Shown in pieces: positions 1 to 24,154 of a DNA stretch of 64,000 bases; within the stretch, counting starts at the first letter, position 1; each line of letters opens with the position of its first letter. The notes beneath the pieces were generated by a model that saw only the letters and a list, made by a program, of their open reading frames with translations, had not been told where the DNA came from and searched no databases. The translations under genes were made by a program, and so were the position numbers. Source of the stretch: a phage; the sequence record PX423614.1, one strand, 5' to 3'.

Positions 1-186
1 AGCCTCTGTTAAGGGGCTATAATAGTGACTATGATCAGGCTAATGATAACCTATGATAACTACTAGTAACACTATGCAACTATACCATTGATGACCATCC
101 CCCATAGTTTGAATGTAATAACTTATGTGATTATTCATGAGTGGATTATTGATGTATGTATCATTAGACTGGTAGTTGTTTACTTT

Positions 187-261
187 AGTTATTATTTTTA
201 TTCTTTCTTTTAATCTTTTTCTTTTATTCTTTTCTTTTTCAGCGTTTCTTTTTTCTTTTGA
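187..261. repeat. T/C-rich polypyrimidine tract near the window's left end
   Basis: ~75 nt composed almost entirely of T and C on the + strand; no ORF. Confidence 0.5.
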
Positions 262-330
262 TGAGTAGATTTTTGACTGGTAATTTACTACCGCATGGTC
301 TGACCTGTTACCTGTAACTAACTTACATTA

Positions 331-430
331 TATCCTACCCGTTTCCCCTTCCTCGTTAGGCTTCTTACCCATTGGCTAACCTATGCGGCACGTCTTACCC
401 ATCTATCTATCCCGTTGGTCTACTACCCGT
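331..430. repeat. iteron-like direct repeats YTACCC(A/G)T at ~30-bp spacing
   Basis: CTACCC/TTACCC copies ending at 340, 370, 400 and 428. Confidence 0.5.
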
Positions 431-547
431 TCTATAAGTGTTATAAAATTGTAAACTGTATCTCTGAATAAGAAAGTTTAGTAAATTAAATTCCTTTTAT
501 ATTCAGTGAGTTAGGATTATAAATCTAAATAGTTTGAAAATAAGTGG

Positions 548-575
548 TTGACATGTTTTTCCTTTAATGTATAGT
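548..575 (+). promoter_or_regulatory. sigma70-like early promoter
   Basis: TTGACA (548-553), 16-bp spacer, TATAGT (570-575) with TG immediately upstream; ~135 bp before the first gene. Confidence 0.5.
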
Positions 576-709
576 TGCAATCGTAGTTTGAATTATCGTT
601 AATGAAGCAGTGATGTAAAGTAGTTAGCGGTGATAGTGAGTAGTGAAGGTTGATCAGCCTAAGTAACTACACACAACAAACAATCTTTCATCTATCAGGA
701 GTAGTAATA

Positions 710-1210
710 ATGGCTATCAAAGCAATGCAGGCTATCAATCTAGCGTCTTATGCACTGGTTGCAGCTATCGGTGTTAGTGTTATCGCTACCAATGTTCAGG
801 CTAAAGATGATAAAGCGTTATCCGCTCCTACAGGTCTGCAATCCTTTGTTAGCACGTTTAAGAATGCTCCTGATATGGTCTGCCGTGACGTTGGTAGTGA
901 TGGTAATGATGCCTTCTGGAAGGTGCATTTTAACTCTGTAACCGTAAAAGATGTGCGTGTCACTCTTACCCCGTTGGACGAGAAATCTGGCACTCAATCA
1001 GTTATTAAATTGAAACGTGCTGATAGTGATCGTGATATGGTGACGTATTCTCTGTATCAGAAGATTGAGAAAGAGAAATTACAGTTTGTAACTAATCTCG
1101 TTAGTTATGGTGATGTAAGTGAAACCGTACTCGCTACTACTGCTTATCATGACGGTGTAGCAGTTTATACAACCTTTATTAACTTTGCTAATTGTGAGGC
1201 TATTCAATGA
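710..1210 (+). CDS. secreted/periplasmic early protein
   Basis: AGGAG RBS 8 nt before ATG 710; hydrophobic N-terminal signal-peptide-like segment ending VQA; ORF track frame. Confidence 0.55.
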   Translation: MAIKAMQAINLASYALVAAIGVSVIATNVQAKDDKALSAPTGLQSFVSTFKNAPDMVCRDVGSDGNDAFWKVHFNSVTVKDVRVTLTPLDEKSGTQSVIKLKRADSDRDMVTYSLYQKIEKEKLQFVTNLVSYGDVSETVLATTAYHDGVAVYTTFINFANCEAIQ

Positions 1211-1455
1211 ACGAATCATTTGCAACCGTGATAAACGCCTACATGTGCATCCAGCATGGTGATTTGGTTATCAGTGGCAAGTATGGGCTTGTATTGATTC
1301 CTATCCGTGCATTAGTAACCTTGTCTTCATTACGTGCACGCATGACCATTGCTCAGTTGTCCGGCCTTGACCCGATGGATGCTAGCGAGTATCGTGATTT
1401 GCTGGTTAAGTCTGGTTTATCGCTGGAAGAACTGTTAACCGTCGAGGATAATTAA
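1207..1455 (+). CDS. hypothetical early protein
   Basis: ORF with ATGA start/stop overlap to upstream gene. Confidence 0.5.
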   Translation: MNESFATVINAYMCIQHGDLVISGKYGLVLIPIRALVTLSSLRARMTIAQLSGLDPMDASEYRDLLVKSGLSLEELLTVEDN

Positions 1456-1457
1456 CG

Positions 1458-1730
1458 ATGGAAACTATTGCCATTATTGAAACACATAATTACGGTGTAG
1501 GCGTTACGCTGAATTATGACGCTATGGCTGACGTTGGTAATTTGTTATTGATCACCCCTAGCGATATGAAAATTATTGCCTTCACTGGTATTATGCTTAT
1601 TGGTGCGGATTATCTTGAGCTAGCCCAGTTCTTTGCCCGTAATGGCCTACTATTGGACATTGACGAGGTGCAAGCCATTTGTGAAACCTTTGATAACCAT
1701 CTAGATAAGGTAGTAAGTGGTGACTCATAA
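1458..1730 (+). CDS. hypothetical early protein
   Basis: ORF tightly packed after previous gene. Confidence 0.5.
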   Translation: METIAIIETHNYGVGVTLNYDAMADVGNLLLITPSDMKIIAFTGIMLIGADYLELAQFFARNGLLLDIDEVQAICETFDNHLDKVVSGDS

Positions 1731-1821
1731 GTATTTCTTGCATTGCCTGATTGCTTTCTGTATCATGTTATTTATCTATGACATGTTTTTCTTTGTTGCA
1801 CATTCTTCTTGAGGTTGAATC

Positions 1822-2148
1822 ATGAAAACTAAGTTAGCTGTATGTGCTGCCTTGTTCGCTATTTCTTCCGTGTCCTATGCTGCCGTATTCAATGAGTCTA
1901 GCCTTGATGGTCTGCAATGCACCTATCTAATGGAAAACTATGACACTGGCAAGAAGTCCAGCAAGGTAGTATTGATTGACCTGAATGACTATGATCATCG
2001 TGTCGTTGATGGCAAGTATGCGATGCTTGTTAATGAAACTACAGGCAAACAAATCACCATAGATCACATGATGCGGTCTAGTATGACGTTGTTCGACGAG
2101 TCGATGAACGAAATAGCATCAGGTAATGGCACTTGCACCAATCCGTAA
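1822..2148 (+). CDS. secreted early protein
   Basis: N-terminal signal peptide MKTKLAVCAALFAISSVSYA; RBS-like GAGG upstream. Confidence 0.55.
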   Translation: MKTKLAVCAALFAISSVSYAAVFNESSLDGLQCTYLMENYDTGKKSSKVVLIDLNDYDHRVVDGKYAMLVNETTGKQITIDHMMRSSMTLFDESMNEIASGNGTCTNP

Positions 2149-2167
2149 CTAATCCGTAAGACTTCCT

Positions 2168-2193
2168 AAGCGCCCTTTTGAGGCGCTTTTTTC
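2168..2193 (+). terminator. rho-independent terminator
   Basis: hairpin AAGCGCC...GGCGCTT followed by T-run. Confidence 0.6.
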
Positions 2194-2354
2194 ATTTCTA
2201 AGGTGATTGCACATCTTGCCCCTGTTTAGCTCGTTAGAACGCCTCCTGTATGCCTTATTTTCGATTATAGGGCTTGTTTTCTTCCTCCCCTGATGTTATT
2301 CGTGTGCGCGTTCCTCTGTACACAAAAGAAAGTGAAATTATTTTAGAAAAAGGC

Positions 2355-2382
2355 TTGCAACGGTTTTATAATAGTGTATATT
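2355..2382 (+). promoter_or_regulatory. sigma70-like early promoter
   Basis: TTGCAA (2355-2360), 16-bp spacer, TG + TATATT (2377-2382). Confidence 0.45.
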
Positions 2383-2422
2383 GAATCTTGTCAGGACGTG
2401 ATGCATTAAGTTACCTCCTGAT

Positions 2423-2455
2423 AGGCTAGATGTTTAGCCTTGCTCTTTAATAATT
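2423..2455 (+). promoter_or_regulatory. rrn-type antiterminator element (boxB-like hairpin + boxA-like TGCTCTTTAATAATT)
   Basis: hairpin AGGCTA...TAGCCT immediately followed by TGCTCTTTAATAATT, near-identical to the E. coli rrn boxA TGCTCTTTAACAATTTA. Confidence 0.5.
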
Positions 2456-2507
2456 CGATTAGTGTATCTTGATAAACTCCCAACCATGCCATAATGAGGA
2501 TTTATCA

Positions 2508-2708
2508 ATGAACGTGTATACCTTCTCAAGCAAAGACACGCAAATCACTTGCACTAGCATTAACGTTACTAACATGATTATGAGAATAGTCGGTAGTACG
2601 CTACAGCAAGCTAAAGAGATGATAGCCGATGCCGATAAAGGCAAATCTATCGCAGTGTTATCGCTGGTAAGTACGGATAAAGATTTAACCTTTAAGCGTA
2701 TGAACTAA
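2508..2708 (+). CDS. hypothetical small early protein (66 aa)
   Basis: GAGGA RBS before ATG 2508; in-frame within track ORF 2469-2708. Confidence 0.5.
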   Translation: MNVYTFSSKDTQITCTSINVTNMIMRIVGSTLQQAKEMIADADKGKSIAVLSLVSTDKDLTFKRMN

Positions 2709-2780
2709 GGTAAGGTAAGGTAAGGTTAGCGGCCTTAATGGTCGCTAGTTTATCAAGATGCATTAATCGAAAAATAGTTG

Positions 2781-2808
2781 TTGACACATCGAATCACTAT
2801 GATAAGAT
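2781..2808 (+). promoter_or_regulatory. sigma70-like early promoter with AT-rich upstream element
   Basis: TTGACA (2781-2786), 16-bp spacer, TGa + TAAGAT (2803-2808). Confidence 0.55.
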
Positions 2809-2840
2809 GTTCACACGGTCAGCGATGACATAAAACATCC

Positions 2841-2874
2841 GGCACTAAGTGCCCCGCTCTTTAATAATTTATCA
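2841..2874 (+). promoter_or_regulatory. rrn-type antiterminator element (hairpin + boxA-like CGCTCTTTAATAATTTATCA)
   Basis: hairpin GGCAC-taa-GTGCC then CGCTCTTTAATAATTTATCA; 18/20 identical to the rrn boxA region GCTCTTTAACAATTTATCA. Confidence 0.55.
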
Positions 2875-2939
2875 TCTTGCCCTTTCGCAAAGATTCACGC
2901 GAGATAAGGGAAAGAATTAAAAGAAGATGATAAAAAGAG

Positions 2940-2967
2940 TTGACAAGCTAACACGATGTGTTAAGCT
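2940..2967 (+). promoter_or_regulatory. sigma70-like early promoter with A-rich UP-like element
   Basis: TTGACA (2940-2945), 16-bp spacer, TGt + TAAGCT (2962-2967); A-rich tract upstream. Confidence 0.55.
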
Positions 2968-2981
2968 GAAAGTGTAGTAAC

Positions 2982-2997
2982 CGCTCTTTAAAAATAT
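2982..2997 (+). promoter_or_regulatory. boxA-like element CGCTCTTTAAAAATAT
   Basis: third copy of the CGCTCTTTAA core about 10 nt downstream of the predicted start site. Confidence 0.45.
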
Positions 2998-3097
2998 GAA
3001 TCAGAAAGTTAAGCGCAACCGCTTACAATCTTGTTAATCCAATACGCGATTAACTGGTCATTCGAAAGAATAGACGAGAAAAAGATTTAAAAAGTGG

Positions 3098-3126
3098 TTG
3101 ACACGCTAAACAGGATGATTCATAAT
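3098..3126 (+). promoter_or_regulatory. strong sigma70 consensus-like early promoter
   Basis: TTGACA (3098-3103), 17-bp spacer, CATAAT (3121-3126); A/T-rich upstream. Confidence 0.6.
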
Positions 3127-3207
3127 GAGCACTCACTAGGCAACTAGTGAAACGTGAAACCACGGCGAACGGTGGCGGGAAGTGAGAAAGCACTTCGATA
3201 GATTTAC

Positions 3208-3227
3208 CGCTCTTTAACAATTTAAAC
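3208..3227 (+). promoter_or_regulatory. rrn-type boxA-like element CGCTCTTTAACAATTTAAAC
   Basis: matches the rrn boxA core GCTCTTTAACAATTT exactly; preceded by hairpin CCACGGCGAACGGTGG. Confidence 0.55.
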
Positions 3228-3229
3228 TT

Positions 3230-4039
3230 CTTCCTATATCGGTTGAACATGGTGAGCAATAATAACCATTGCAAGCTATGCCAGATAAAACGATGTAAGG
3301 CGCTCTAGAGTATCAGAGGAAACCGCTTTACAATCCCTTACTGGAAACGACACCACTGATAAATGAAGTTATTGAGTACATGCAAGGCTTAAGCTAATCG
3401 CCTACGGTTAAAGGGTAGCGGCGGCGGTGCTAGTAAAGTGCTACAATAATAGACGTTTATCGGGGTAGTTAAGTCCGACGAATTAACGCTCAATAGCGAG
3501 CGGCGGGAGGGGGTTAAAGAATGGCAAATTGCTATTTAACAATAAGGTTTAAGCGTGAGTATTTACTAAGTGAGTGTTTTGATACACATCAATAGCGATG
3601 TGAGTACATAAACATGTAGTGTAGTAAATCGTGAGAGAGATAATCAAACGCCAAAGTATCAGGCGGTCAATGACTCTTTACCATATGCTTTCCCATAGTA
3701 GGCGATAAGCAGGTTTAGAGAGTTGATATAAAAGGGTATCACGAAGCGAAAGCAAAGTAAATAGTAATGCCATCGGCTAGAAATTTAGCTAATTAGAGAT
3801 GGACGCGCTTGCCTTATTGTGATGATTGATCATCGCTGGCAAATCGGCTTTGTTTATAGCGATTAGTTAAATCCACCAGATGAAACATCACGGCAAGTTA
3901 GGCGGCAAGGTTAACTCCTGATAAGACCGCCTGATTTACCACTGGTTACTAGTAGTTAGTGATTAGTGTTAAGTCATTGTGACTTGAATAGCTCATAGAG
4001 AGCGGCGCATAGTGCGTTTACAATTGAAAGGTGAATATC
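3230..4039 (+). other. ~800-nt untranslated leader / candidate non-coding RNA region downstream of tandem promoter-boxA modules
   Basis: no ORF of 60 aa or more on either strand in the track; recurring motif GC(G/T)TTTACAAT at about 3019, 3339 and 4011; GCGGCGG-rich segments. Confidence 0.35.
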
Positions 4040-4942
4040 ATGGCTAAAGTTTTTAATCTGGTTAACGAATCCGGCTTTAATGCACTGGCAAACAACATTC
4101 GTAGTAACAACGCGGCAATCAAACAAGATGTTTCTAACTTCTTGTTAGGCCATTTGCAGCACTTCCGCACTAACGGTAAGAAACTGGATGTATTGCAGTC
4201 GGCGGTTGATTTTCTGTTAACTGAACGTTACCGTGATTTAGATGTAATTTCGGTTGCAATCTCTTTCCTTACTCCTATCAAATATAACACTGACGGGGCG
4301 AACGGTAAGAAGAAATGGATTAATCTGGAAGGTGAAGCGAAAGCTAAAGAAGATGCTAAACCGGAACAGGTTAAATCTAAAATGGAACAAAACCGCGCCC
4401 GCTGGTCGAACTCCTTTGAACGCTTTGCTAAAGGTGAAGACGTGCAGGTTGATAACCCAGCATTCTACAAAGGTTGTAATGACAACGTTCCGGTAGCAAA
4501 TCAAATCAACCAGAAGGTTAACGAAAACTTTAATCAGGATATTTATGCACTGGTTGACCGTCTGGCTGCAATCCGTATTGAAGCGGCACTACTGGCAGAT
4601 GAACGCAATGGCGCATCTTCTGACAATACCATCGCGTTGAGTGAAGAGGTTGGCAAAGTTAAGAAAACTTTTGATTCACTCCTTAAGAAAGTAACCGCGT
4701 CAACCGTATCAATCAGCGATGACTACCTGATCAATGCGTCAATGAAAGAGCTTGAGTCGCTGGACTCTTACGCTGATGAAATGGAAAAGGCGATCAACGA
4801 AATGACTGAGAAATTATCTAACCTTCGCGGTCGTATCTCAAACGCCTCAACTGTTAAAGCTAACGAGAAAGCTGCGCAGGAAGAGGAAGAAGTATTGCGC
4901 AAGGCCGCTGAGATTATGGCAGCGCGTCAACTGGCAGCATAA
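4040..4942 (+). CDS. abundant early protein of unknown function (300 aa)
   Basis: AAAGGTG RBS before ATG 4040; long ORF; followed by strong terminator. Confidence 0.6.
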   Translation: MAKVFNLVNESGFNALANNIRSNNAAIKQDVSNFLLGHLQHFRTNGKKLDVLQSAVDFLLTERYRDLDVISVAISFLTPIKYNTDGANGKKKWINLEGEAKAKEDAKPEQVKSKMEQNRARWSNSFERFAKGEDVQVDNPAFYKGCNDNVPVANQINQKVNENFNQDIYALVDRLAAIRIEAALLADERNGASSDNTIALSEEVGKVKKTFDSLLKKVTASTVSISDDYLINASMKELESLDSYADEMEKAINEMTEKLSNLRGRISNASTVKANEKAAQEEEEVLRKAAEIMAARQLAA

Positions 4943-4961
4943 CCAACAATAAAACACATGA

Positions 4962-4994
4962 GGCGCTATTCGAAAGGGTAGCGCCTTTTTCTTT
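4962..4994 (+). terminator. rho-independent terminator
   Basis: hairpin GGCGCTA...TAGCGCC followed by TTTTTCTTTT. Confidence 0.65.
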
Positions 4995-5049
4995 TACTAG
5001 TGCATTGATTCAGTGTGCTAATCAAAGAAACTAAAAAGAGATAAACACC

Positions 5050-5274
5050 ATGCCAAAACTGAAAACAGAAGTTAAGATGTATCGTAACATTCTCAACAAC
5101 ATGACCTATCGTAAAACCGATAAATACGGAATCGAATGCAAATGCATTCTTACTGGCGAGTGGTATCCGTCGCCGATTCAAGAACAAGCATTGATTGAAA
5201 ACTCTGTTACTTACACTATCACGCAGGAAACTAAGCTAGGCCGATTCCTTCGTAAGCTGGGGTTACGCAAATGA
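5050..5274 (+). CDS. hypothetical early protein
   Basis: ORF track; AAGAG upstream. Confidence 0.45.
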   Translation: MPKLKTEVKMYRNILNNMTYRKTDKYGIECKCILTGEWYPSPIQEQALIENSVTYTITQETKLGRFLRKLGLRK

Positions 5275-5492
5275 TCTTAACTCAATCCCATTTGTGCCCT
5301 ATCTGTAAGAAAGCACGTGCTAATAACAACCATCGCAAATGTAGCAGAATACTACAGCGTCGTCGTAATGATGCCGAGATGGATAAGATTAAAAAGAATC
5401 AGCATGAGCACGAAAGAAAACAAGCGGCGATTAGTGCATCAACTGTTATGTATCGTCGTGTAAGATCACTCCAATATAAAGGGGCTATTTAA
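5271..5492 (+). CDS. hypothetical basic protein with CxxC motif
   Basis: ORF with 4-nt overlap to neighbour; CPIC motif. Confidence 0.45.
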   Translation: MILTQSHLCPICKKARANNNHRKCSRILQRRRNDAEMDKIKKNQHEHERKQAAISASTVMYRRVRSLQYKGAI

Positions 5493-5701
5493 TGACCAGC
5501 TTAAGCACGTTAGAGAAGAAAGCTACTCGTTTGTTAGGACGTCGTGTCCGCTATCACTACCTGAATAAAGGTAAGGCATTAACCGGACGTATTACCACGG
5601 TATCTAGTTGTCGTGGTAAACTGATCTCTGTAAGTGTTCTCTTTGATGGCGAAAAGGTAGCAATTACACGTAGTTGGAAGTCATTTAGTTTAATTGATTA
5701 A
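5492..5701 (+). CDS. hypothetical protein
   Basis: ORF track; start overlaps upstream stop. Confidence 0.45.
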   Translation: MTSLSTLEKKATRLLGRRVRYHYLNKGKALTGRITTVSSCRGKLISVSVLFDGEKVAITRSWKSFSLID

Positions 5702-5771
5702 GTTATTTGGTTAAGCCTTGCTGTGTGGTAAGGCTTGCACGATATAATTTATCAGCGAAAGGAATAAAGAA

Positions 5772-6215
5772 ATGGCTAAATCTAAAATCAGCATGAAAGG
5801 CGGACGAGTGTTCTCTATGAGTGAGCTGGAAAAAGAAAAGCCAGCCGCTGTTAACCATATTAGCAAACGTAGCCTTAAACGAAGAGCTATCAAACAAGCC
5901 GCTCAAGAACATAAGCCTTCTACCGTAGCGAAGGTGTTAGGTCGTCGTGTTCATCGTGCTGATGCGCTTCTTCTTGCTGATCACAAGCGTTCTCTGTTAA
6001 CCAACGGTGCAGCAAAAACAGAACAAGAAAAACGTTTAGAAATCTTTTGTAACGGTCGCACTAAAGGTAAGCAGAAGAATAAAGGTAGCACTAAGCCACC
6101 GAAAGCATTTCCTACTACTAGCCAATGTGCACCAGATGTTTTCTACGCTGATAGTAAACATAAGTGGGGAGTTGAAAAATATATTGACCCAATCAAAACA
6201 GCAAGAGTTAAGTAA
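5772..6215 (+). CDS. hypothetical highly basic protein
   Basis: GGAATAAAGAA RBS region; Lys/Arg-rich ORF. Confidence 0.5.
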   Translation: MAKSKISMKGGRVFSMSELEKEKPAAVNHISKRSLKRRAIKQAAQEHKPSTVAKVLGRRVHRADALLLADHKRSLLTNGAAKTEQEKRLEIFCNGRTKGKQKNKGSTKPPKAFPTTSQCAPDVFYADSKHKWGVEKYIDPIKTARVK

Positions 6216-6245
6216 GCCCCTTCTGTACCAGTAGTCAACTACTAT

Positions 6246-6293
6246 GACGCTCTTCTTGAGCGTCTTTGTCTGCCGCCTTTGTGCGGCTTTTTG
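6246..6293 (+). terminator. tandem terminator hairpins
   Basis: GACGCTC...GAGCGTC then GCCGCC...GCGGC followed by TTTTTG. Confidence 0.5.
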
Positions 6294-6452
6294 CGTAGCT
6301 AGTGATGCCTAAAGGGAACCCCCTTTGTGAATCATTGGCATGGTTCAATCCCTATTGGATGGTCATTTGACCGGGCCTTTAACGAGGCCTCTTTTTTAAG
6401 AGTCTTTACGAGGATTCTTAAATGAGTGAGGTCATGTTCACTCTTTCAGGTC

Positions 6453-6479
6453 GCCCCGTCTTCGGATGGGGCTTTTTTA
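6453..6479 (+). terminator. rho-independent terminator
   Basis: GCCCCgtcttcggatGGGGC followed by TTTTTT. Confidence 0.65.
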
Positions 6480-6530
6480 TGCCCGTAAAACAGGGGGTAG
6501 TAAGTTCTGATAACGACAGCCCAGCTACTT

Positions 6531-6917
6531 TTGACATTGACTATTTATTATGAGGCAGGGAATCAGCCAACCGCTTGCAAAGCATTAGTAGCGGATACCG
6601 TAATAAACAGAATGTCACAACGAAAACTGACTGCCGAGCAGGTTATAAATCAACGAAACCAGTTCGAGTGGATACCCGTCCTATTAAAGAAGGAGAAACC
6701 TTTTAAGCGTTATGTAAAGCTGATTCGTGATGATAATCCTCTGACGAAGAAGTCAATCAGAGAGAGCGAGTGGCTTGCAAGGCGTGCACTGAAGAAAGGT
6801 TATGTGCCTTTGTACAGCGGTACATACTTTCAGAGTAAGAGCGAAGGGGTGCCAAAGTGGTATACCAATCCGATGTATTGTGGTGATTTAGTGTTCAATA
6901 ATAGCTCCCGCGATTGA
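6531..6917 (+). CDS. CwlJ/SleB-like cell-wall hydrolase domain protein
   Basis: motifs IYYEAGNQ, VINRM, NQFEWI, WLARRALKKG and YF...WY resemble the CwlJ/SleB hydrolase family; only in-frame start is TTG 6531. Confidence 0.45.
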   Translation: MTLTIYYEAGNQPTACKALVADTVINRMSQRKLTAEQVINQRNQFEWIPVLLKKEKPFKRYVKLIRDDNPLTKKSIRESEWLARRALKKGYVPLYSGTYFQSKSEGVPKWYTNPMYCGDLVFNNSSRD

Positions 6918-7118
6918 TTCATAGGTGCCAAGATTGACAAACTAAATTTCCTTATAAATCACACACTTATGATTTTCTCTGTAAAAAGTGGAAGTGATTT
7001 GGGACCAGAGGTAATGACTGTATATAGACCTCTGAAAATTATTGATAGAAATTAAGTTTAGAAATAATAAATTCTAAATAATATTTCTTATAATATCTTA
7101 CTTTAAGAGGATAAAGAT

Positions 7119-7424
7119 ATGACTTTAGAGGTTTATAAATTCCTTCTCGTACTCACTGTAACGATCTCTACTCTGGGATTTATTGCTTTAAGTAATAAGT
7201 CAGCAAGCTGGAAGCGTCGTTATGAGTTCCTTCTTAAGCAAGAGGAAGTCTTTAATGCTGATGTTCGTTCCAAACTGTTCAAAATGCAGGAGCAAATTGA
7301 AGCACGTAACGATCGTTTGGCTTCTTTGGGTTGGGAGATTAAGCGTATTCAAGATCTCAATAAGCAACTCACTGAAGAAATTAAACGCCAGAATGAGGAA
7401 ACAGAGGATGCGCTCAAAGGTTAA
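7119..7424 (+). CDS. membrane-anchored coiled-coil protein
   Basis: N-terminal hydrophobic helix then charged coiled-coil-like sequence; RBS AAGAGG. Confidence 0.5.
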   Translation: MTLEVYKFLLVLTVTISTLGFIALSNKSASWKRRYEFLLKQEEVFNADVRSKLFKMQEQIEARNDRLASLGWEIKRIQDLNKQLTEEIKRQNEETEDALKG

Positions 7425-7584
7425 GTTTACCACTGGTAACACTGTCCGCCTTGTTGGCGGTACTCAAACAGGTGTTATTCGTCGGAGAACAACGATTGAT
7501 GGTGTTCTCTGTTATCTTGTTCAGTGGAATGGTGAGTCTTCTCCTTCCTTCGAACGTCGTACTGATTTGGTGCTAGTCAAATGA
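7408..7584 (+). CDS. small protein (58 aa)
   Basis: ATG 7408 in frame of track ORF 7222-7584; GAGGA RBS; overlaps previous gene end. Confidence 0.4.
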   Translation: MRSKVKFTTGNTVRLVGGTQTGVIRRRTTIDGVLCYLVQWNGESSPSFERRTDLVLVK

Positions 7585-7814
7585 AGATGAACTTCGAAAT
7601 CATCCCAAAGGTTAAAGAAAAGCAGCTAATCTTCAGTGATCTCTCTAACGGGGATATTTTTAAATTTAAGAATGTTGATGCTGATACTTATCTTTGGATG
7701 AAAATTGACAAACGGTCTGCCATGAAGTTAAGTGACACTTCTGACATCACTGATGTATTTATCCATTCTGAAGTCTCTAAGTACAAATACAAAATTATCA
7801 TTGAGGGTAAGTGA
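7581..7814 (+). CDS. small early protein, member of GDxF paralog family
   Basis: shares a conserved L..G[DE].F motif (here LSNGDIF) with six other ORFs in 7.8-13.1 kb. Confidence 0.5.
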   Translation: MKMNFEIIPKVKEKQLIFSDLSNGDIFKFKNVDADTYLWMKIDKRSAMKLSDTSDITDVFIHSEVSKYKYKIIIEGK

Positions 7815-8044
7815 TGAAAATTAATCTCTTCTCTGTAGTTGTTACTAAAAAGCTCAGTGAGTTACGTCCGGGTGATGTATTCCGTTTACCGACTAACTCT
7901 GAAAATGTCTACCTAAAGACAGACACTAGCCTTAACGATATGCATCGTGTGGTTGGTCTTAGTCAGGGGACACTGTTCCAATTACAGGAAGACCATGAAG
8001 TTATCCCTGTACCTGATGTTCAAGTAACTCATATTGGTGGTTAA
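7811..8044 (+). CDS. small early protein, GDxF paralog family
   Basis: LRPGDVFRL...VIPVP motif pattern shared with paralogs. Confidence 0.55.
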   Translation: MMKINLFSVVVTKKLSELRPGDVFRLPTNSENVYLKTDTSLNDMHRVVGLSQGTLFQLQEDHEVIPVPDVQVTHIGG

Positions 8045-8269
8045 ATGAAGATTGATATTGATAATACCCCAGCGGTTGTAACTCTCGGTGATCTGAATTC
8101 GGGTGAAGTCTTCCAGTTTAACTACAACGAAACTCAATATTACATGCGTACTGCCTGTTATGGGGAAAACAAAAACTACTTTGTTAACCTCTCCACAGGT
8201 AAACGTGACTCTGAGTGTAAATCAACAGTGGTGCAGCGTGTACCTAATGTTCGACTGACCAATAAGTAA
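8045..8269 (+). CDS. small early protein, GDxF paralog family
   Basis: LNSGEVFQF pattern. Confidence 0.5.
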   Translation: MKIDIDNTPAVVTLGDLNSGEVFQFNYNETQYYMRTACYGENKNYFVNLSTGKRDSECKSTVVQRVPNVRLTNK

Positions 8270-8278
8270 CATCGACTT

Positions 8279-8306
8279 ATAGCCCTTGTGTTTATCAGAG
8301 GGCTAT
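8279..8306 (+). repeat. conserved hairpin ATAGCCCT...AGGGCTAT (copy 1 of a duplicated intergenic module)
   Basis: 8-bp stem; same hairpin at 13084-13111; both followed ~80 nt later by AACATCCG..GATAG. Confidence 0.5.
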
Positions 8307-8571
8307 GTGAGGATGTTCCTCAATTAACTATACTCTCAACGCCATATGGCTCACCGCTAGGGCGAGACTTGTCTCAAACATCCGGTGATAGACTAAAACC
8401 TGTTAATTTTCGAACAGCTTTCCGATATGTAGGGGTATGTATCGGTTTGGGATAGAGAACAATCTAGGGGTAGAGAGTTCTCGACAGTTAGTACAAGCGG
8501 AAGCCTTAACGTGTAGGGCTTCCCTTTATATTAACTGGCAAACCTGCCTCCACCAACAAAGAGAGAACGAT

Positions 8572-8712
8572 ATGAAGAAGACAACCAAACGTATGAACCG
8601 TCCTGAACGTATGGATGCAGTAGCAAATGGTGCTCTGAAGATTGAGTCTGCCATGCTTCGTCTGACAACTAACATCCGTAAGCGTCAAGGTGATTGGTTC
8701 TACGGTGGATAA
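8572..8712 (+). CDS. small basic protein (46 aa)
   Basis: AGAGAG RBS-like before ATG 8572; in frame of track ORF. Confidence 0.35.
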   Translation: MKKTTKRMNRPERMDAVANGALKIESAMLRLTTNIRKRQGDWFYGG

Positions 8713-8721
8713 TTAATAATG

Positions 8722-8754
8722 GGCTGCCCTTCGGGGTGGCCTTTGTTGTTTTAA
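8722..8754 (+). terminator. terminator-like hairpin with ttcg loop
   Basis: GGCTGCCCttcgGGGTGGCC followed by TTTGTTGTTTT. Confidence 0.5.
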
Positions 8755-8795
8755 TTAAGGGACAACTCTTACTTAAACTAACAAGAGAGGTTGAT

Positions 8796-9047
8796 ATGTT
8801 CAATCGTTTATTTGACCGTAAAGGTCGCACTGACATACTGATACCTTCTATCGGTGTGCCAGCTAAGTTCGGTGAGATACGTGCTGGTGATTTCTTCATG
8901 GAATCAGGTCGTCTTCATCTGAAGATCAACCTCGATCACGCTGTTGAAATCCTCAGTGATGATAAGCCAATCATCGGCACTTCGGTGTACAGTGCAAACC
9001 ATACTGTATTTGTTGTCAATGTTCAGATTGAGATTAAATCACCATGA
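8796..9047 (+). CDS. small early protein, GDxF paralog family
   Basis: AGAGAGG RBS; IRAGDFFM pattern. Confidence 0.5.
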   Translation: MFNRLFDRKGRTDILIPSIGVPAKFGEIRAGDFFMESGRLHLKINLDHAVEILSDDKPIIGTSVYSANHTVFVVNVQIEIKSP

Positions 9048-9301
9048 AGACAAACTTCCGAGCAGCAGTTATTACGAAAGTAATAGCAGTTGGTGATGTA
9101 ATGATGCAAGTTCCTCTGAACACTCGTTACATTGCCATTGACCGAATGGGTTATGTGTGGGCTTGGAAGTGGAAGCCTACTTACAATAAACTGTTCGACG
9201 AATACCAGTGCGCTGGGCCTTACATGCCAACGTTGGTTGGTGTGTATGAAGACGGTCCTTGTCGTACTCCTCAGTTAATTGAACTACCGGCGTGTGCTTA
9301 G
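9044..9301 (+). CDS. hypothetical protein
   Basis: ORF track; overlapping start/stop with neighbour. Confidence 0.45.
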   Translation: MKTNFRAAVITKVIAVGDVMMQVPLNTRYIAIDRMGYVWAWKWKPTYNKLFDEYQCAGPYMPTLVGVYEDGPCRTPQLIELPACA

Positions 9302-9302
9302 T

Positions 9303-9467
9303 ATGATTAAATGGTTCAAGCGTCTTGTGCATCTGCATGATTGGGTAATCCTTGAAAAATATACGCTGAAGATTACTGACGATCACGGTGGGACAAAGCA
9401 CAAAGGTCTTCGCTATATTATGCAGTGTAAAGTGTGTGGTCATGTTACCAAGCGTGACATGATCTAA
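9303..9467 (+). CDS. small Cys-containing protein, tandem paralog 1 (MIKWFKRL...)
   Basis: N-terminus MIKWFKRL and C-terminal CKVCGH shared with the next gene. Confidence 0.5.
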   Translation: MIKWFKRLVHLHDWVILEKYTLKITDDHGGTKHKGLRYIMQCKVCGHVTKRDMI

Positions 9468-9476
9468 GGGATCATT

Positions 9477-9641
9477 ATGATTAAATGGTTCAAGCGTCTC
9501 TTTCATTTCCATGAGTGGGAAGATCTTTCTACTTATGAATTGACGATCACAAATAAACTTACTGACAGAGAGCGACAAGGGTTGCGTATCTACTCTCGCT
9601 GTAAAGTGTGTGGTCTGCACAAGAAAACAGATCTGATCTAA
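9477..9641 (+). CDS. small Cys-containing protein, tandem paralog 2
   Basis: MIKWFKRLFHFHEW...CKVCGLHKKTDLI, paralog of 9303-9467. Confidence 0.5.
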   Translation: MIKWFKRLFHFHEWEDLSTYELTITNKLTDRERQGLRIYSRCKVCGLHKKTDLI

Positions 9642-9649
9642 GGGGTGTT

Positions 9650-9859
9650 ATGTTCTTTCGTAAGAAAAAGCCCGAAGATTCTGGATGTAAACACGAGTGG
9701 GTGATCACTGAAAACCTACACATCACTCACGCTAAAGATACTCCAGTAGAGAGAAAAGAGTCTCGTGTATCTCGTGTCTGTAAGCGCTGTTTGAAAATAG
9801 AACAGCATAAAGTTCCCGGTCATATCGGTCATGATGTGGCCTTGCGTATTTTCACTTAA
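9650..9859 (+). CDS. small Cys-containing protein, distant paralog 3
   Basis: CKHEWVITE...CKRCL pattern; ATG 9650. Confidence 0.4.
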   Translation: MFFRKKKPEDSGCKHEWVITENLHITHAKDTPVERKESRVSRVCKRCLKIEQHKVPGHIGHDVALRIFT

Positions 9860-9868
9860 ACAAATCCA

Positions 9869-9944
9869 GCACCCTTAGCTCAATGGACAGAGCAGCGACC
9901 TTCTAAGTCGTTGGTTACAGGTTCGAATCCTGTAGGGTGCACCA
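9869..9944 (+). tRNA. tRNA-Arg (anticodon UCU)
   Basis: cloverleaf: acceptor GCACCCT/AGGGTGC, D-stem GCTC/GAGC, anticodon stem-loop with TCT at positions 34-36, T-arm ACAGG-TTCGAAT-CCTGT, encoded 3' CCA. Confidence 0.85.
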
Positions 9945-9962
9945 ATCAACGTAGGAGGGTTT

Positions 9963-10103
9963 ATGACCTCTGAGTTTAATGAGTGGTTCGATGATATCTT
10001 TACTTCTCCTTTGTTCAGCGAAGAAGAAAGAGAAGAACTTAAAACCTACCTATGGATGGCTTGGCGAGATAGCCGCCGTAAGGCGCTTCAGGAGGGATCA
10101 TGA
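9963..10103 (+). CDS. small acidic protein (46 aa)
   Basis: strong AGGAGG RBS before ATG 9963; stop overlaps next start. Confidence 0.45.
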   Translation: MTSEFNEWFDDIFTSPLFSEEEREELKTYLWMAWRDSRRKALQEGS

Positions 10104-10426
10104 GCTGGGGTGGTGTAATTACCTTAACCTGTATCTTTATCGCCTGTGTAGCTCTTACAGGCTGTGTACAGCATCGTCCTGATGGATGGTGTGCATTATC
10201 TGTAGAAGGTGTCTGTGTTTCCCGTTGGCATAGTGGGGAGAAGGTTCCTAGCGGTGAAATTGATATGCGTTATGCTGGCGCTTCTTGTTCAAATGGCGGT
10301 GCTGTTGATGAGAAGGCTTATGCAGGGCGTGATATGGAGACACAAGGTGATTGGTCGCGTTATGACTTTATCTCCCGTGGTGTACAGTGTAGTGGCTCTG
10401 TGACAACAACAGGTAAGGAGTGGTGA
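10100..10426 (+). CDS. putative lipoprotein
   Basis: signal peptide with lipobox-like LTGC; Cys-rich mature part. Confidence 0.5.
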   Translation: MSWGGVITLTCIFIACVALTGCVQHRPDGWCALSVEGVCVSRWHSGEKVPSGEIDMRYAGASCSNGGAVDEKAYAGRDMETQGDWSRYDFISRGVQCSGSVTTTGKEW

Positions 10427-10427
10427 T

Positions 10428-10682
10428 ATGTCTGGTCATTATTCTGATACGAAAGCATTGCTTGAAACAGCAGCTAAGACTTCATGCCAACAGCAAGTAA
10501 AAATGTTGTTGGTTGATATTAACAATCTGCGCTGGCTTATTAAAGAAGGTCATCTTGGAAACGCTGCCTATTACAACGTTAAAGATATCCTTCGCCGCCA
10601 GCACTTCCTTATCCACGGAAACGTGGTCACTCGCAACTACCAATGGAACGGTCAATGGTTACAGCAGCGTATGTCCTCCTGA
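10428..10682 (+). CDS. hypothetical protein
   Basis: ORF track; AGGAG RBS. Confidence 0.5.
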   Translation: MSGHYSDTKALLETAAKTSCQQQVKMLLVDINNLRWLIKEGHLGNAAYYNVKDILRRQHFLIHGNVVTRNYQWNGQWLQQRMSS

Positions 10683-10909
10683 TTTATGTTATTGGTTGGT
10701 GGTTGGCAGCCATTGTAGTTAAATGGTGCTTCAAAACCAATACACTCTACAACTTCTTCCATTCCTCATGGAGTGGTAAGCCTGATGAATACTCTATTTG
10801 GACGGTGATATTCTTCTGGCCTTTTATGCTGATCTTTATCCTCTTCTTACCTTTACTTATGTTGATAGGTTGGGTAATGGATAAGGTGACAATCTTTGTT
10901 ACTAAGTAA
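10643..10909 (+). CDS. small integral membrane protein
   Basis: two to three hydrophobic helices; true start uncertain. Confidence 0.4.
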   Translation: MERSMVTAAYVLLIYVIGWWLAAIVVKWCFKTNTLYNFFHSSWSGKPDEYSIWTVIFFWPFMLIFILFLPLLMLIGWVMDKVTIFVTK

Positions 10910-11185
10910 TATCGTGAAGGATTCTTACGAGAGTCCTTTGAGATAGGACTTCAGATCTCCTATCAACTAACCGCTCAATGTTGAGCATTTTATTCACATA
11001 AGCCCCTCATGGGCTGGGTTTAATGCCGGTAAGCGTTTTACGCTATCCACTACAGCATCGGATTGTTAGGTCTTACATGCAATATTAATTAATAGGATAT
11101 GGGAGGATTCGTCCCCTCCCCCTATTTATGAAAGCATTCTTCCGAGAGTTCTCTCATAAATTGGTCCATAACTAAAGGTGGTAAA

Positions 11186-11440
11186 ATGAAAGTTAACAAA
11201 CCAGCCAGTAAGAACGCAATACCACTCAGCGCTCTGCGTCTTGGGGATTGCTTCATGTACCCTAACAGTGAAGATGGTGATTTGTACATCTTACTGTCTA
11301 CCGAGTTCTCAACTCGACTCTGCATCAAGGGCGCGGACGAGCATAGACTTGTAGCCTGTCTTAACACAGGCCGAGCGACAGCTCCTCGTAAAGATGTTGC
11401 TGTTATTCCTATTAAAGCTGAAGCAACTATTAAGGAGTAA
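11186..11440 (+). CDS. small early protein, GDxF paralog family
   Basis: LRLGDCFMY pattern; AAAGGTGG RBS. Confidence 0.55.
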   Translation: MKVNKPASKNAIPLSALRLGDCFMYPNSEDGDLYILLSTEFSTRLCIKGADEHRLVACLNTGRATAPRKDVAVIPIKAEATIKE

Positions 11441-11443
11441 GCA

Positions 11444-11707
11444 ATGGCTCTGACCATTAACAAAACTCGTATTGCGGATATTCCTCTAATGGTGGCAGGT
11501 GTTTCTATCGGTTCTTTCTTTACTTTGAAAGAAGATAAAGAACAAACCATTTACATGAAAGTGAACAAAAGCTCTAATGGTTGTGAATACCACCGAGCTG
11601 TGTCTATGCAGAGTGGATACGTTCGTAATATGGCATCCAATATGCCAGTTGGTGTTGTGTTTGAATCAGCAACTCTGGATTTAGTGGAGAAGATCAGTGA
11701 AACATAA
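11444..11707 (+). CDS. small early protein, divergent GDxF-family paralog
   Basis: similar length and hydrophobic pattern; AAGGAG RBS. Confidence 0.45.
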   Translation: MALTINKTRIADIPLMVAGVSIGSFFTLKEDKEQTIYMKVNKSSNGCEYHRAVSMQSGYVRNMASNMPVGVVFESATLDLVEKISET

Positions 11708-11954
11708 AGACCATCCAAAGTATGTATCGCTATTGGATGCAGCCCTTCTCTGCACGTACTGGCTCCTTATTGTTATTGGGGTTGTGCTAATGATATGTGG
11801 TGTCGTACAGTTCTTTATGTATCTGCAAAGCGTGTTAGATATCACATTAGCTAACACTATAATCCTTGCAATTCTCGGTATTATTGCTTTCTGTGTGATT
11901 GTCTTCTTCGTTTGGTTATCTATGAACGACGACTCTACACACACCTTCTATTGA
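11697..11954 (+). CDS. small integral membrane protein
   Basis: two long hydrophobic helices. Confidence 0.45.
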   Translation: MKHKDHPKYVSLLDAALLCTYWLLIVIGVVLMICGVVQFFMYLQSVLDITLANTIILAILGIIAFCVIVFFVWLSMNDDSTHTFY

Positions 11955-11967
11955 CAGGAGAGAATCA

Positions 11968-12084
11968 GTGAGAAAACGTGCCTACTCTGAAGAAGAAATG
12001 GTTAACCTGAAAGGATTCGGTCAACGACAGCCCGATGGTTCAGTTATCTGGTACATTAACGGACAGAAAAAGGCAAGTAAATAA
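11968..12084 (+). CDS. small protein (38 aa), GTG start
   Basis: AGGAG RBS before GTG 11968; followed by terminator-like hairpin. Confidence 0.3.
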   Translation: MRKRAYSEEEMVNLKGFGQRQPDGSVIWYINGQKKASK

Positions 12085-12152
12085 GCCCTCTTCTCTCCTC
12101 CTTTTAACTACTATGACGCCTCTCTTTTCGGCGCTGTTTTGGAGCTTCAAAA

Positions 12153-12566
12153 ATGTCTGGGAAATTCCCTAACGTAAGCAAGAAATTGGCTTACTTAACG
12201 TATAAAGAAAACATTGACCTTCTGGTCAAGCTATATCCGGCTTCATTCAACAAGCAATTCCCTCTTCCTTTGGAGCCTAATGTCCACAAGGAAATCGCCC
12301 GCAAGACTGGTTGGTCAGCGGAGAAAACAAGCATGGTGCTCAACATCTGGACTACTCGTATGGAGTATGTGATGATGGCCTGTAGCACTGGTAAACGCTT
12401 CAAGCTGCACTCTGTAGCTATGAAGATTCGTAGCCCTATTGACCCTGAGCCGATGGCTGGCTTTATTAGCCGTCTGAAATCTTTCCGTGATCGTGGTCGT
12501 GTAGTGAAATTCAAGCATGACTTCTCTTACAAGTTTGGATACGAAGCGTTCCAATTTGTTGTTTAA
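12153..12566 (+). CDS. ProQ/FinO-domain-like RNA-binding protein
   Basis: N-terminal region aligns by eye with the ProQ/FinO domain (LYPASF, PLPL, WTTRMEYVMMACSTGKRFKLHS versus ProQ FPHCF, PLKIGI, YTSSWRYL...G.RVDL). Confidence 0.4.
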   Translation: MSGKFPNVSKKLAYLTYKENIDLLVKLYPASFNKQFPLPLEPNVHKEIARKTGWSAEKTSMVLNIWTTRMEYVMMACSTGKRFKLHSVAMKIRSPIDPEPMAGFISRLKSFRDRGRVVKFKHDFSYKFGYEAFQFVV

Positions 12567-12593
12567 TCTCTCTTTAATGTAAGGTAATAAAGC

Positions 12594-12827
12594 ATGTCTA
12601 AAGTTAGCGCAATTGATGCCATCCGTCAGCCGTTCCAGTTCCAGTCTAAATCAACTCAGACCCACAGCGAACCTAAACAGATTCGTCTGGGCGGTACAGA
12701 GAAGACTGTATTCGATATTGCGAAAAATAAAAGCGTAACCATCGTCGAAGGCGGCGAACTGGTTAATGTTTCCCACCGTATTCGCACTGGCAAGACTGCC
12801 AAAGATCGTGCTAAGAAAGGTTTGTAA
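12594..12827 (+). CDS. hypothetical protein
   Basis: ORF track; RBS-like AAGG. Confidence 0.45.
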   Translation: MSKVSAIDAIRQPFQFQSKSTQTHSEPKQIRLGGTEKTVFDIAKNKSVTIVEGGELVNVSHRIRTGKTAKDRAKKGL

Positions 12828-13078
12828 TGCAAATTTCCAATAAAACACCTCCTGAGCCTACTGTTCAAGTAAAAGATATGACACCGGGAGATGTGTTTCG
12901 TTCGGTTGAATATCCGGGGGAATTCTTTATCCGAATCCCTTCTGCCTCTGTTGCTGGTATCGCTAAGCCGGTAACAGCAGTTCAGTTGAGCACAGGTCAT
13001 CTCTTCCGTTTAGAGATTGACATGGCAGTTATTCCTGTTCCGACAGCAATCCTCCGCTTCGACGGAGATACAGAGTAA
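12827..13078 (+). CDS. small early protein, GDxF paralog family
   Basis: MTPGDVFRS...VIPVP; closest paralog of 7811-8044. Confidence 0.55.
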   Translation: MQISNKTPPEPTVQVKDMTPGDVFRSVEYPGEFFIRIPSASVAGIAKPVTAVQLSTGHLFRLEIDMAVIPVPTAILRFDGDTE

Positions 13079-13083
13079 CATCT

Positions 13084-13111
13084 ATAGCCCTCGTGAGTAT
13101 CAGAGGGCTAT
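13084..13111 (+). repeat. conserved hairpin ATAGCCCTC...GAGGGCTAT (copy 2 of duplicated intergenic module)
   Basis: 9-bp stem; homologous to 8279-8306; followed by GCTAGGGAGAG and GAACATCCG..GATAG as in copy 1. Confidence 0.5.
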
Positions 13112-13319
13112 GTGAGCTATTCTGGCTCAACTAACCTAATCTTAATTTAATCTTTCCCGTATGGGGCCGATGCTAGGGAGAGGAATAATCCTCGAACATC
13201 CGTCGGATAGAATATTTTAAGAGCAGGTTATCCACAGATATTGGGTGATATCTATTTAATTGGCCTTAAAGCTTGGCTCTCTTATGAGAGTCCTTTTTTA
13301 AGTTCAAAGAAGAGGTTGT

Positions 13320-13487
13320 ATGGATAATAAGTTGAAAGCTAAATTCTTATTGGCAGCAATCTTTATTTGCTTAGCCACTGTGGGGTTTGTCAGGATGTAC
13401 TCTTTTGCATCTTGCGAGTTAAGCAAGAATAACAGAGGGTCTTACAACTGGCTAACCAATCAATGTGACAAACAGGAGAAGTTATGA
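13320..13487 (+). CDS. small membrane/secreted protein (55 aa)
   Basis: AAGAGG RBS; hydrophobic N-terminus; stop overlaps next ATG. Confidence 0.4.
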   Translation: MDNKLKAKFLLAAIFICLATVGFVRMYSFASCELSKNNRGSYNWLTNQCDKQEKL

Positions 13488-13846
13488 ACCTACGCCCCAT
13501 TAAAGGCCATGTGAACCTGTCTACGCTTCATAAAGTAGCAAATGATTTAGGTGGTATGGATGAGGAAGATCTGAAACAGCAACTGCTTTGGATTTCTCAT
13601 GGTATCAAGGCGGCAAAGGCCAAAATGGCTCGTGCACAAGGTAAACTAAAAGCGAATAAATATCTTATTCGCCGTCGTAATACCTTACCTCAGGATGTGG
13701 TAAGTTTAGCTTTATCAGGATATAAAGCAGCAGAGGTAGAGCTTCAGGAAGCAGAGTTTGAAAAAATGCGCTTCCAAGAGAACTATCGAAACTTCCGTAG
13801 TATTGACTACATTCGCAAATCTCTGAGCCTTTTGGTAGCAGAGTAA
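13484..13846 (+). CDS. hypothetical protein
   Basis: ORF track; AGGAG RBS. Confidence 0.5.
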   Translation: MNLRPIKGHVNLSTLHKVANDLGGMDEEDLKQQLLWISHGIKAAKAKMARAQGKLKANKYLIRRRNTLPQDVVSLALSGYKAAEVELQEAEFEKMRFQENYRNFRSIDYIRKSLSLLVAE

Positions 13847-13856
13847 AGAGGTAAAA

Positions 13857-15074: not shown

Positions 15075-15082
15075 AGGCGAAT

Positions 15083-16832: not shown

Positions 16833-16841
16833 GGTGATATT

Positions 16842-18565: not shown

Positions 18566-18642
18566 CACAACGGGCGCTCTTATACAGGGCGCATTTAAAG
18601 GTTAATTAGATGAAAGGGTTTACCCTTCAGGTGGATTAGAAA

Positions 18643-20676: not shown

Positions 20677-20687
20677 GAGGTATAGTT

Positions 20688-21123: not shown

Positions 21124-21125
21124 AA

Positions 21126-22361: not shown

Positions 22362-22387
22362 TTAAATTAAACAAAAAGGAATTTGTA

Positions 22388-22812: not shown

Positions 22813-22869
22813 TTTGCTTTAGCCTCTTCGAAAGAGGAGGCTAGTTCGAATTTAACTAGAGGTTGTAAA

Positions 22870-23286: not shown

Positions 23287-23292
23287 GCAGCC

Positions 23293-23490: not shown

Positions 23491-23494
23491 TGTA

Positions 23495-24119: not shown

Positions 24120-24154
24120 GAAGATTGCTCAAGGAATTCCAAGGAGGATAGAGC

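Follow-up and report, generated by a model that had tools for sequence, protein, structure and literature searches.

Rrn-type boxA elements follow tandem early promoters ahead of a conserved structured RNA in phiEco32-like coliphages

Four promoter-boxA cassettes precede an untranslated leader

We analyzed a stretch of phage DNA of 64,000 nucleotides (nt) (sequence record PX423614.1; hereafter the window) in which a cluster of early promoters, each followed by a copy of the host antitermination element boxA, precedes a long leader without genes. The window derives from a phiEco32-like coliphage (Gordonclarkvirinae), and according to the annotations of relatives its + strand is the direction of early transcription. 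Positions 2100-4100 matched 98 phage records, all of them phiEco32-like podoviruses of E. coli or Shigella (Gordonclarkvirinae: Kuravirus, Suseptimavirus), with phage NC-B and vB_EcoP_PAS59 as nearest relatives at ~95% identity. The early-gene end of the genome is close to the start of the window. According to published work on this group, early transcription relies on the sigma70 RNA polymerase of the host; the phage sigma factor gp36 takes over later, and gp79 shuts off sigma70. The following features make up the locus.

2344-2382, + strand: P1, sigma70-like promoter with an A-rich tract upstream, conserved in NC-B, SU7 and MLP3
2423-2440, + strand: AGGCUAGAUGUUUAGCCU hairpin at the boxB position, immediately adjoining boxA#1
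2441-2453 (core 2442-2452), + strand: boxA#1, TGCTCTTTAATAA
2781-2808, + strand: P2, TTGACA 2781-2786, 16-nt spacer, TG-extended TAAGAT 2803-2808, A/T-rich upstream tract
2818-2853, + strand: hairpins of cassette 2, GUCA-GCGA-UGAC with a GNRA loop (2818-2829) and GGCAC-UAA-GUGCC (2841-2853, abutting boxA#2)
2855-2874 (core 2856-2866), + strand: boxA#2, CGCTCTTTAATAATTTATCA
2940-2967, + strand: P3, TTGACA 2940-2945, 16-nt spacer, TG-extended TAAGCT 2962-2967, A-rich upstream tract; listed as '73668' in SU10 Table S2
2982-3002 (core 2983-2993), + strand: boxA#3, CGCTCTTTAAAAATATGAATC
3098-3126, + strand: P4, TTGACA 3098-3103, 17-nt spacer, CATAAT 3121-3126 (11/12), UP-like GAAAAAGATTTAAAAAG upstream; listed as '73511' in SU10 Table S2
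3131-4039, + strand: multi-domain structured leader RNA of ~0.9 kb, free of open reading frames (ORFs) and conserved, spanning the P4 start to the ATG of gp124
3179-3196, + strand: hairpin GAAGUG-AGAAAG-CACUUC in the boxB position, 11 nt 5' of boxA#4
3208-3227 (core 3209-3219), + strand: boxA#4, CGCTCTTTAACAATTTAAAC
4040-4942, + strand: homolog of phiEco32 gene 124 (gp124), 300 amino acids, the first translated gene after the leader
4960-4997, + strand: strong intrinsic terminator (12-bp stem plus T-run) closing the leader-gp124 unit

A sequence-only reading of this DNA had described four sigma70-like promoters with spacers of 16-17 nt, three of them with A-rich tracts. P2 to P4 agree with this description and carry TTGACA. 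P1 is weaker and its register is ambiguous, reading either TTGCAA 2355/TATATT 2377 (16-nt spacer) or TAGAAA 2344/TATAAT 2367 (17-nt spacer). A-rich tracts are found upstream of all four promoters rather than of three. All boxAs lie on the + strand, 10-85 nt past sigma70-type promoters as placed by promoter prediction, with P3 and P4 also predicted independently in SU10; the narrower distance of 40-80 nt given before does not hold for boxA#3, which begins ~10 nt after the P3 start. The sequence-only reading was right that three boxAs follow a hairpin: one lies just 5' of boxA#1, #2 and #4, and none was seen at #3. A consistent hairpin 3' of the boxAs, the order of lambda nut sites, was not found.

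The boxA copies match the host consensus

GYTCTTTAANA is the functional boxA consensus of gamma-proteobacteria, which Baniulyte et al. (2017, PMC5725501) obtained by mutagenesis and by comparing boxAs that function in E. coli. The exact sequence GCTCTTTAA occurs four times in the 64 kb, against 0.92 expected, always on the + strand (2442, 2856, 2983, 3209). All four copies are perfect GYTCTTTAANA matches and fall within 778 bp, which bears out the proposed closeness to the host consensus; the whole window holds five such matches on both strands against 0.64 expected. By our own arithmetic from the window rate, the chance of four one-strand matches within 778 nt is ~1e-9 after scanning. One-mismatch matches elsewhere in the window stay at background level. 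The fifth perfect match, at 32435 on the - strand, is probably a coding coincidence.

The likeness to rrn leaders suggested by the sequence-only reading also held when the elements were aligned with them. Indeed, boxA#4 is identical to the rrnB leader boxA GCTCTTTAACAATTTA over 16/16 positions, and boxA#3 resembles the boxA of the rrnB 16S-23S spacer, TGCTCTTTAAAAATCTGGATCA, with which 8/10 downstream positions agree. Host likeness thus outruns the boxA core: the flank of boxA#2 (2867-2874) carries TTATCA as in the rrnB leader, and that of boxA#3 (2994-3002) reads AT.TG.ATCA as in the rrnB spacer. The leader-type flank also occurs in the divergent relatives L028 and L029.

The cassettes are conserved among relatives

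The homologous spacer was taken from 24 further phages across the subfamily, and five metagenomic contigs (L028-L032) were added through a gp124 protein search, which detected metagenomic relatives at 45-67% identity. The spacer 5' of the phi32_124 homolog is an unannotated gap of 1.6-2.1 kb in every subfamily phage compared. The gaps of the 25 phages hold 2-5 perfect + strand boxAs each, mostly four or five and 101 in total, and for 67 of the 101 a promoter scoring at least 9/12 lies within 130 nt upstream. Each of the five contigs has a gene-free gap of 3 kb with 2-3 perfect + strand boxAs and its own TTGACA promoter with an A-tract; the boxA core is invariant and the other flanks have diverged. 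The distance from the last boxA to the gp124 ATG is 901-936 nt in these contigs versus 831 nt in the window. Perfect boxAs are therefore found at the same place in 30/30 relatives examined, with 2-5 copies each.

Among 86 unique boxA instances, the positions that the search did not force were informative. Position 0 is a pyrimidine in 82/86, position 11 is A in 86/86, position 12 is A in 85/86 and position 13 is T in 71/86, following the rrn pattern YGCTCTTTAANAAT; position 10 varies freely and the upstream flanks carry almost no information. P4 is conserved in 25/25 close relatives and recognizable in L028-L032. The cassettes are modular and duplicated, being present in 4-5 copies whose order varies among relatives. 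The GCGA-loop hairpin of cassette 2 recurs in the divergent L028 with a compensatory stem change (CUUCA-GCGA-UGAAG), and divergent relatives retain a hairpin 5' of the last boxA, with other stems and A-rich loops.

Beyond this group, Salmonella phage 7-11 (Grimontviridae) has no boxA consensus in the early direction, and homology was absent from its leader and gp151; the boxA system appears to be limited to Gordonclarkvirinae-like phages. A pattern scan of IMG/VR matched only four contigs. Isolated - strand matches inside the phi32_120 homolog of some relatives (L004 4268, L005 6193, L011 6175, L015 6192) are probably coding coincidences.

The leader is a multi-domain structured RNA

The region fed by the promoters had been described as ~800 nt of untranslated sequence. 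It is indeed free of ORFs over the 831 nt that separate boxA#4 from the gp124 ATG (4040), but it is not an inert spacer. It is a structured RNA that the sequence-only reading had missed and, since the untranslated region is a large conserved RNA, the purpose of the system changes. A coding function of the leader was rejected, as it contains 86 stop codons over three frames and its longest ORF has 25 amino acids. Across all 98 records it is 73-97% identical.

We derived a consensus fold from an alignment of 25 phages with 949 columns (RNAalifold). The fold has an energy of -248.6 kcal/mol and 235 pairs, 72 of which keep pairing through two-sided changes. Paired cells amount to 99.2%, compared to 33-46% when partners were slid by 1-3 columns; the slid controls have 5-8 covarying pairs, and the observed values were reached in 0/500 shuffles. 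The reverse-complement alignment folds much worse (-158.5 kcal/mol), and 580 G-U/U-G cells stand against 19 A-C/C-A cells, showing that the structure belongs to the + strand RNA. Since helices spanning long distances covary (columns 107-120/396-410, 237-268/329-361, 431-458/651-718 and 521-526/633-638), the leader represents a multi-domain fold and not a string of hairpins. It was found by nhmmer in 5/5 divergent relatives (E 1e-10 to 1e-103) and is present in all 30 relatives examined.

BoxA#4 sits at the 5' root of this RNA. In the consensus fold its core is unpaired, bar two nucleotides in an unsupported helix, and boxA#1-#3 are unpaired in single-sequence folds. The hairpin at 3179-3196 (helix 2) is 100% paired, with double changes at 3/6 pairs, and its A-rich loop is nearly invariant (GAGAAAGC; compare the rrnB boxB UGAGAAAAAGC). 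A predicted helix that would close the RNA by pairing ATTTACC just 5' of boxA#4 with the gp124 Shine-Dalgarno sequence was rejected, because it shows no covariation and is not conserved in L028-L032. An internal boxA-like sequence, TGCTATTTAACAA (3530-3542, + strand), is invariant. It was rejected as a Nus site, since the critical position 4 deviates (C4 to A) and the sequence is base-paired in the consensus fold, and it is probably structural.

Rfam 15 covariance models gave no match at E <= 1 in 1-8000 and only noise (E > 3) in 2300-4100. A comparison of the leader with 5,426 E. coli genomes revealed no similarity at E <= 0.01, which rules out recent capture of an rrn segment.

GTTACCTCCTGATA, found in the P1 leader hairpin (2410-2423), is similar to GTTAACTCCTGATA, found in an invariant leader-RNA hairpin (3910-3923), and the ACCUCCU part resembles the 3' end of 16S rRNA. 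The sequence (C)TTTACAAT follows three hairpins of the window (3018-3031, 3322-3333 and 4013-4022); related to it are ~7 tandem CTTTACA(A/T) copies upstream of the cassettes in L030 (4551-4625).

Neighboring early genes and signals

Three further features surround the cassettes.

548-575, + strand: first early promoter, driving the translated genes at 710-2148
2168-2196, + strand: intrinsic terminator (stem 2168-2188 plus T-run) ending the first early operon, annotated at the same place in SU7 and SU10
2508-2708, + strand: small ORF of 66 amino acids with a ribosome-binding site, in the interval from cassette 1 to cassette 2; SU7 and MLP3 have it annotated

Motif search and reading of the sequence revealed no boxA at the early promoter 548. 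The small ORF has no Pfam or PHROG match. Downstream of the leader, gp124 is restricted to the phiEco32-like group and its metagenomic relatives. Pfam gave no match for it, and its sole PHROG is one of unknown function. The AlphaFold model (predicted local distance difference test score 81) consists mainly of helices, with a long one at the C terminus, and no PDB or BFVD neighbor was found outside its own family. On the + strand of 4900-24899 we found no strong sigma70 promoter (24 promoter-like sites versus 38 in shuffles), and strong terminator-like hairpins are located at 4960, 6246, 6272, 6453 and 8721. The downstream early genes may hence rely on read-through from the P1-P4 cluster.

What the cassettes may do

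We consider it probable that rrn-type Nus-factor antitermination, independent of an N protein, protects the leader RNA and the gp124 gene from Rho. BoxA is the binding site of NusB-NusE/S10 in rRNA operons. Each of the four cassettes would place the host boxA GCUCUUUAANA into the first ~10-85 nt of the transcript, usually just 3' of a small hairpin, and the nascent boxA would recruit NusB/S10. Together with NusA, NusG, SuhB and S4, these factors would turn host RNA polymerase into an rrn-type complex that is fast and Rho-resistant and needs no phage N-like protein. Such a complex could cross the ~0.9 kb of structured, ribosome-free RNA and then the gp124 gene, up to the terminator at 4960. By analogy with rRNA, it may also aid folding of the leader RNA, although this is speculation.

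As far as sequence goes, the proposal of Nus-dependent antitermination made by the sequence-only reading is supported by the consensus, the strand, the order of hairpin and boxA, the conservation in 30/30 relatives and the unpaired boxA#4. From these motifs, their position and promoter proximity, and from the RNA structure, we infer Nus-factor binding, Rho resistance and any chaperone effect. We favor an rrn-like over a lambda-nut-like mechanism because the boxAs have the full consensus and because the hairpin precedes boxA. The distribution of boxA also supports the proposal: the early promoter 548, which feeds translated genes, lacks it, and the 0.9 kb downstream of the cassettes is non-coding and structured, as in other boxA clients. 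Long untranslated RNAs, namely rRNA and CRISPR arrays (clustered regularly interspaced short palindromic repeats), are known to be protected by boxA (Stringer et al., 2020, PMC7665894).

Several points weigh against this explanation. In a comparison with the rrnB leader, a boxC-like GU-rich element (UGUGUGGG-like) was not detected 3' of any boxA copy. BoxC is not known to be required for antitermination. The need of the leader for protection against Rho is our assumption, made by analogy with rRNA: the leader is poor in C (17%), rich in G (24%) and heavily paired, so that it hardly stands out as a rut substrate for Rho loading. In principle, a single boxA placed past P4 would be enough for the transcripts of all four promoters, and the number of copies must be explained in another way, for instance by early loading, by duplication of cassettes or by weak binding. 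Moreover, rrn-type complexes are not expected to override the terminator at 4960, so that the mechanism alone leaves the ~20 kb of promoter-poor early genes unexplained. Finally, boxA can also have negative effects: in suhB and hisG it favors termination by Rho or represses translation (2025 Rho review).

The early genes behind 4960 could be reached by lambda-like processive antitermination, which we regard as unlikely. Here, the boxA complex would act with a phage N-like factor, perhaps bound to a hairpin with an A-rich loop, and would read through the terminators at 4960, 6246-6287, 6453 and 8721 so that P1-P4 drive the whole early region. The shortage of promoters and the several terminator-like hairpins in these 20 kb would fit this idea. 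So would the hairpin 5' of boxA#4, which keeps its A-rich purine loop while the stem covaries, as expected of a protein-binding loop, and for the distant relative 7-11 an antitermination strategy has been postulated, without being defined, by those who studied that phage. However, the boxAs are of the full rrn type and not of the weakened lambda form, the order of hairpin and boxA is the reverse of that in nut sites, and the hairpins differ between cassettes. No N-like family match was obtained for the four ORFs scanned against Pfam and PHROG, which leaves room for a novel N analogue.

The number of boxAs raises the idea of a decoy: boxA RNA made in bulk from four strong promoters, each transcript bearing as many as four copies, might titrate NusB/S10/SuhB away from host rrn operons and thereby aid shut-off, instead of or besides acting in cis. 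Four to five boxAs, each near a strong UP-element promoter, do exceed the strict need of cis protection, and the flanks mimic both rrn leader and rrn spacer boxAs. Still, we judge a decoy improbable. In every relative the last boxA occupies a fixed position at the root of the structured RNA, which speaks for action in cis, and sigma70 transcription is already shut off by gp79.

Negative regulation as documented for suhB (PMC5725501) would make the elements early attenuators, with NusB/S10 at boxA repressing translation of a nearby ORF, either the small ORF at 2508 or gp124, and thereby promoting Rho termination. While boxA#1 is located only 55 nt upstream of the ATG of the small ORF, boxA#2-4 are far from any start codon, and phiEco32-type spacers that lack the small ORF yet retain boxAs. 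The predicted helix joining sequence 5' of boxA#4 to the gp124 Shine-Dalgarno region would suit such a mechanism but, as described above, it neither covaries nor persists in L028-L032, and we hold attenuation to be quite improbable. Chance or a DNA-level repeat without RNA function, such as a protein-binding site or a relic of the evident duplication of modular cassettes in variable order, is very improbable given that the motif is the host consensus including its one free position, that all cassette copies share one strand, that the core stays invariant amid diverged flanks in 30 genomes and that the clustering is far beyond chance.

Returning to rrn-type antitermination, we tentatively propose a broader version, to which we give somewhat less than an even chance. 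Kuravirus-like phages may build a miniature look-alike of an rRNA operon, in which UP-element promoters and boxB/boxA would load the antitermination and RNA-chaperone complex of the host. This complex would then make and fold a ~0.9-kb RNA of a novel class with an early function of its own, beyond that of a gp124 5' untranslated region.

Comparison with known systems

The closest counterparts are the antiterminators in the leaders and 16S-23S spacers of E. coli rrn operons (boxB-boxA-boxC; NusB/E, NusA, NusG, SuhB, S4). They have the same boxA, to which phage boxA#4 is identical as described above, and both leader-like and spacer-like flanks occur in the phage. As in rrn operons, a hairpin precedes boxA, no phage factor is required in principle, and tandem strong promoters with A-rich UP-like tracts are followed by a long, untranslated and highly structured RNA. 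Unlike rrn operons, the phage lacks boxC and has 4-5 boxAs, one per promoter, instead of one shared leader copy. Moreover, its RNA has no similarity to rRNA, the unit ends in a protein gene, and the context is a virulent phage.

The nut sites of lambdoid phages (lambda, P22, phage 21; boxA-boxB plus N) likewise carry boxA just downstream of early promoters, where host Nus factors protect early transcription. In nut sites, however, boxA precedes boxB, and the lambda boxA is weakened and needs N, whereas the phage described here is not temperate, its boxAs have the full consensus and a homolog of N was not found. The A1-A2-A3 promoters of T7 resemble the P1-P4 cluster in that strong promoters for host RNA polymerase near the early-gene end of the genome start the early programme. 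The T7 leader is short and is quickly followed by translated genes, unlike the leader here, and to our knowledge no boxA has been described in it. Among cis-acting antiterminator RNAs, the put RNA of HK022 has ~70 nt and acts directly on RNA polymerase without Nus factors or boxA. Like our leader, put is a structured phage leader RNA past early promoters and is linked to termination resistance (mentioned in PMC7665894). No similarity between the leader and put was detected, and Rfam gave no match.

CRISPR arrays of Salmonella and other bacteria also have a consensus boxA shortly past the promoter of a long untranslated RNA, where it protects against Rho (Stringer et al., 2020, PMC7665894). These arrays differ in being chromosomal, with a single boxA and a repeat-spacer product, as opposed to multiple boxAs and a folded 0.9-kb RNA in a phage. 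The boxA in the 5' untranslated region of suhB (Baniulyte et al., 2017, PMC5725501) is another non-rRNA case with the same GYTCTTTAANA. There it sits no more than 50 nt from the start codon, favors Rho termination and represses translation, while most phage copies are far from ORFs.

The sequence-only reading knew of no description of such antitermination for this phage group. The promoter cluster itself is already published for SU10 and phiEco32. The SU10 paper reports three sigma70 promoters in the gp124 spacer, as in phiEco32, and its Table S2 contains the equivalents of P3 and P4. For the boxAs, the claim stands as far as the searchable literature reaches. This literature, which excludes the primary phiEco32 papers (Savalia 2008, Pavlova 2012), does not mention boxA, antitermination or a structured RNA for the phiEco32 group. 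Searching it for boxA together with lytic phages returned only work on rrn, lambda, suhB and CRISPR. The functions of boxA given in a 2025 Rho review are confined to rrn, lambdoid phages, hisG and suhB, without a lytic-phage case.

Antitermination by boxA and Nus factors has so far been described for rRNA operons, for lambdoid phages, where N takes part, and for CRISPR arrays as well as some autoregulated genes. If our proposal is true, a virulent phage repeatedly copies the full-strength rrn signal, apparently without N, which would be a new phage use of the host transcription machinery. It would also provide a rationale for the unannotated gap of 1.6-3 kb at the start of the early region in 30/30 genomes of an abundant, poorly studied group. 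The analysis further exposed a large conserved structured RNA without a known family, a by-product more novel than the boxA cassettes. Large structured RNAs are rare, and several of those known are associated with phages. Our proposal can be tested directly: the BASEL isolates Bas86-94 of the subfamily grow on O-antigen-restored E. coli K-12, for which nusB, nusE and suhB alleles and bicyclomycin are standard.

Further observations

In phage 7-11 (L027), ~1 kb of G-rich non-coding sequence precedes the first early gene, gp151 (last ~1050 nt, early direction). Near the genome end of the window, 5' of the first early promoter, positions 181-290 are repetitive and rich in T, and a CTTACCC-like motif recurs at 300-430. 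A tRNA-Arg(TCT) gene at 9869-9944, the only tRNA gene reported by ARAGORN, lies in the early region, as it does in SU7 and SU10.

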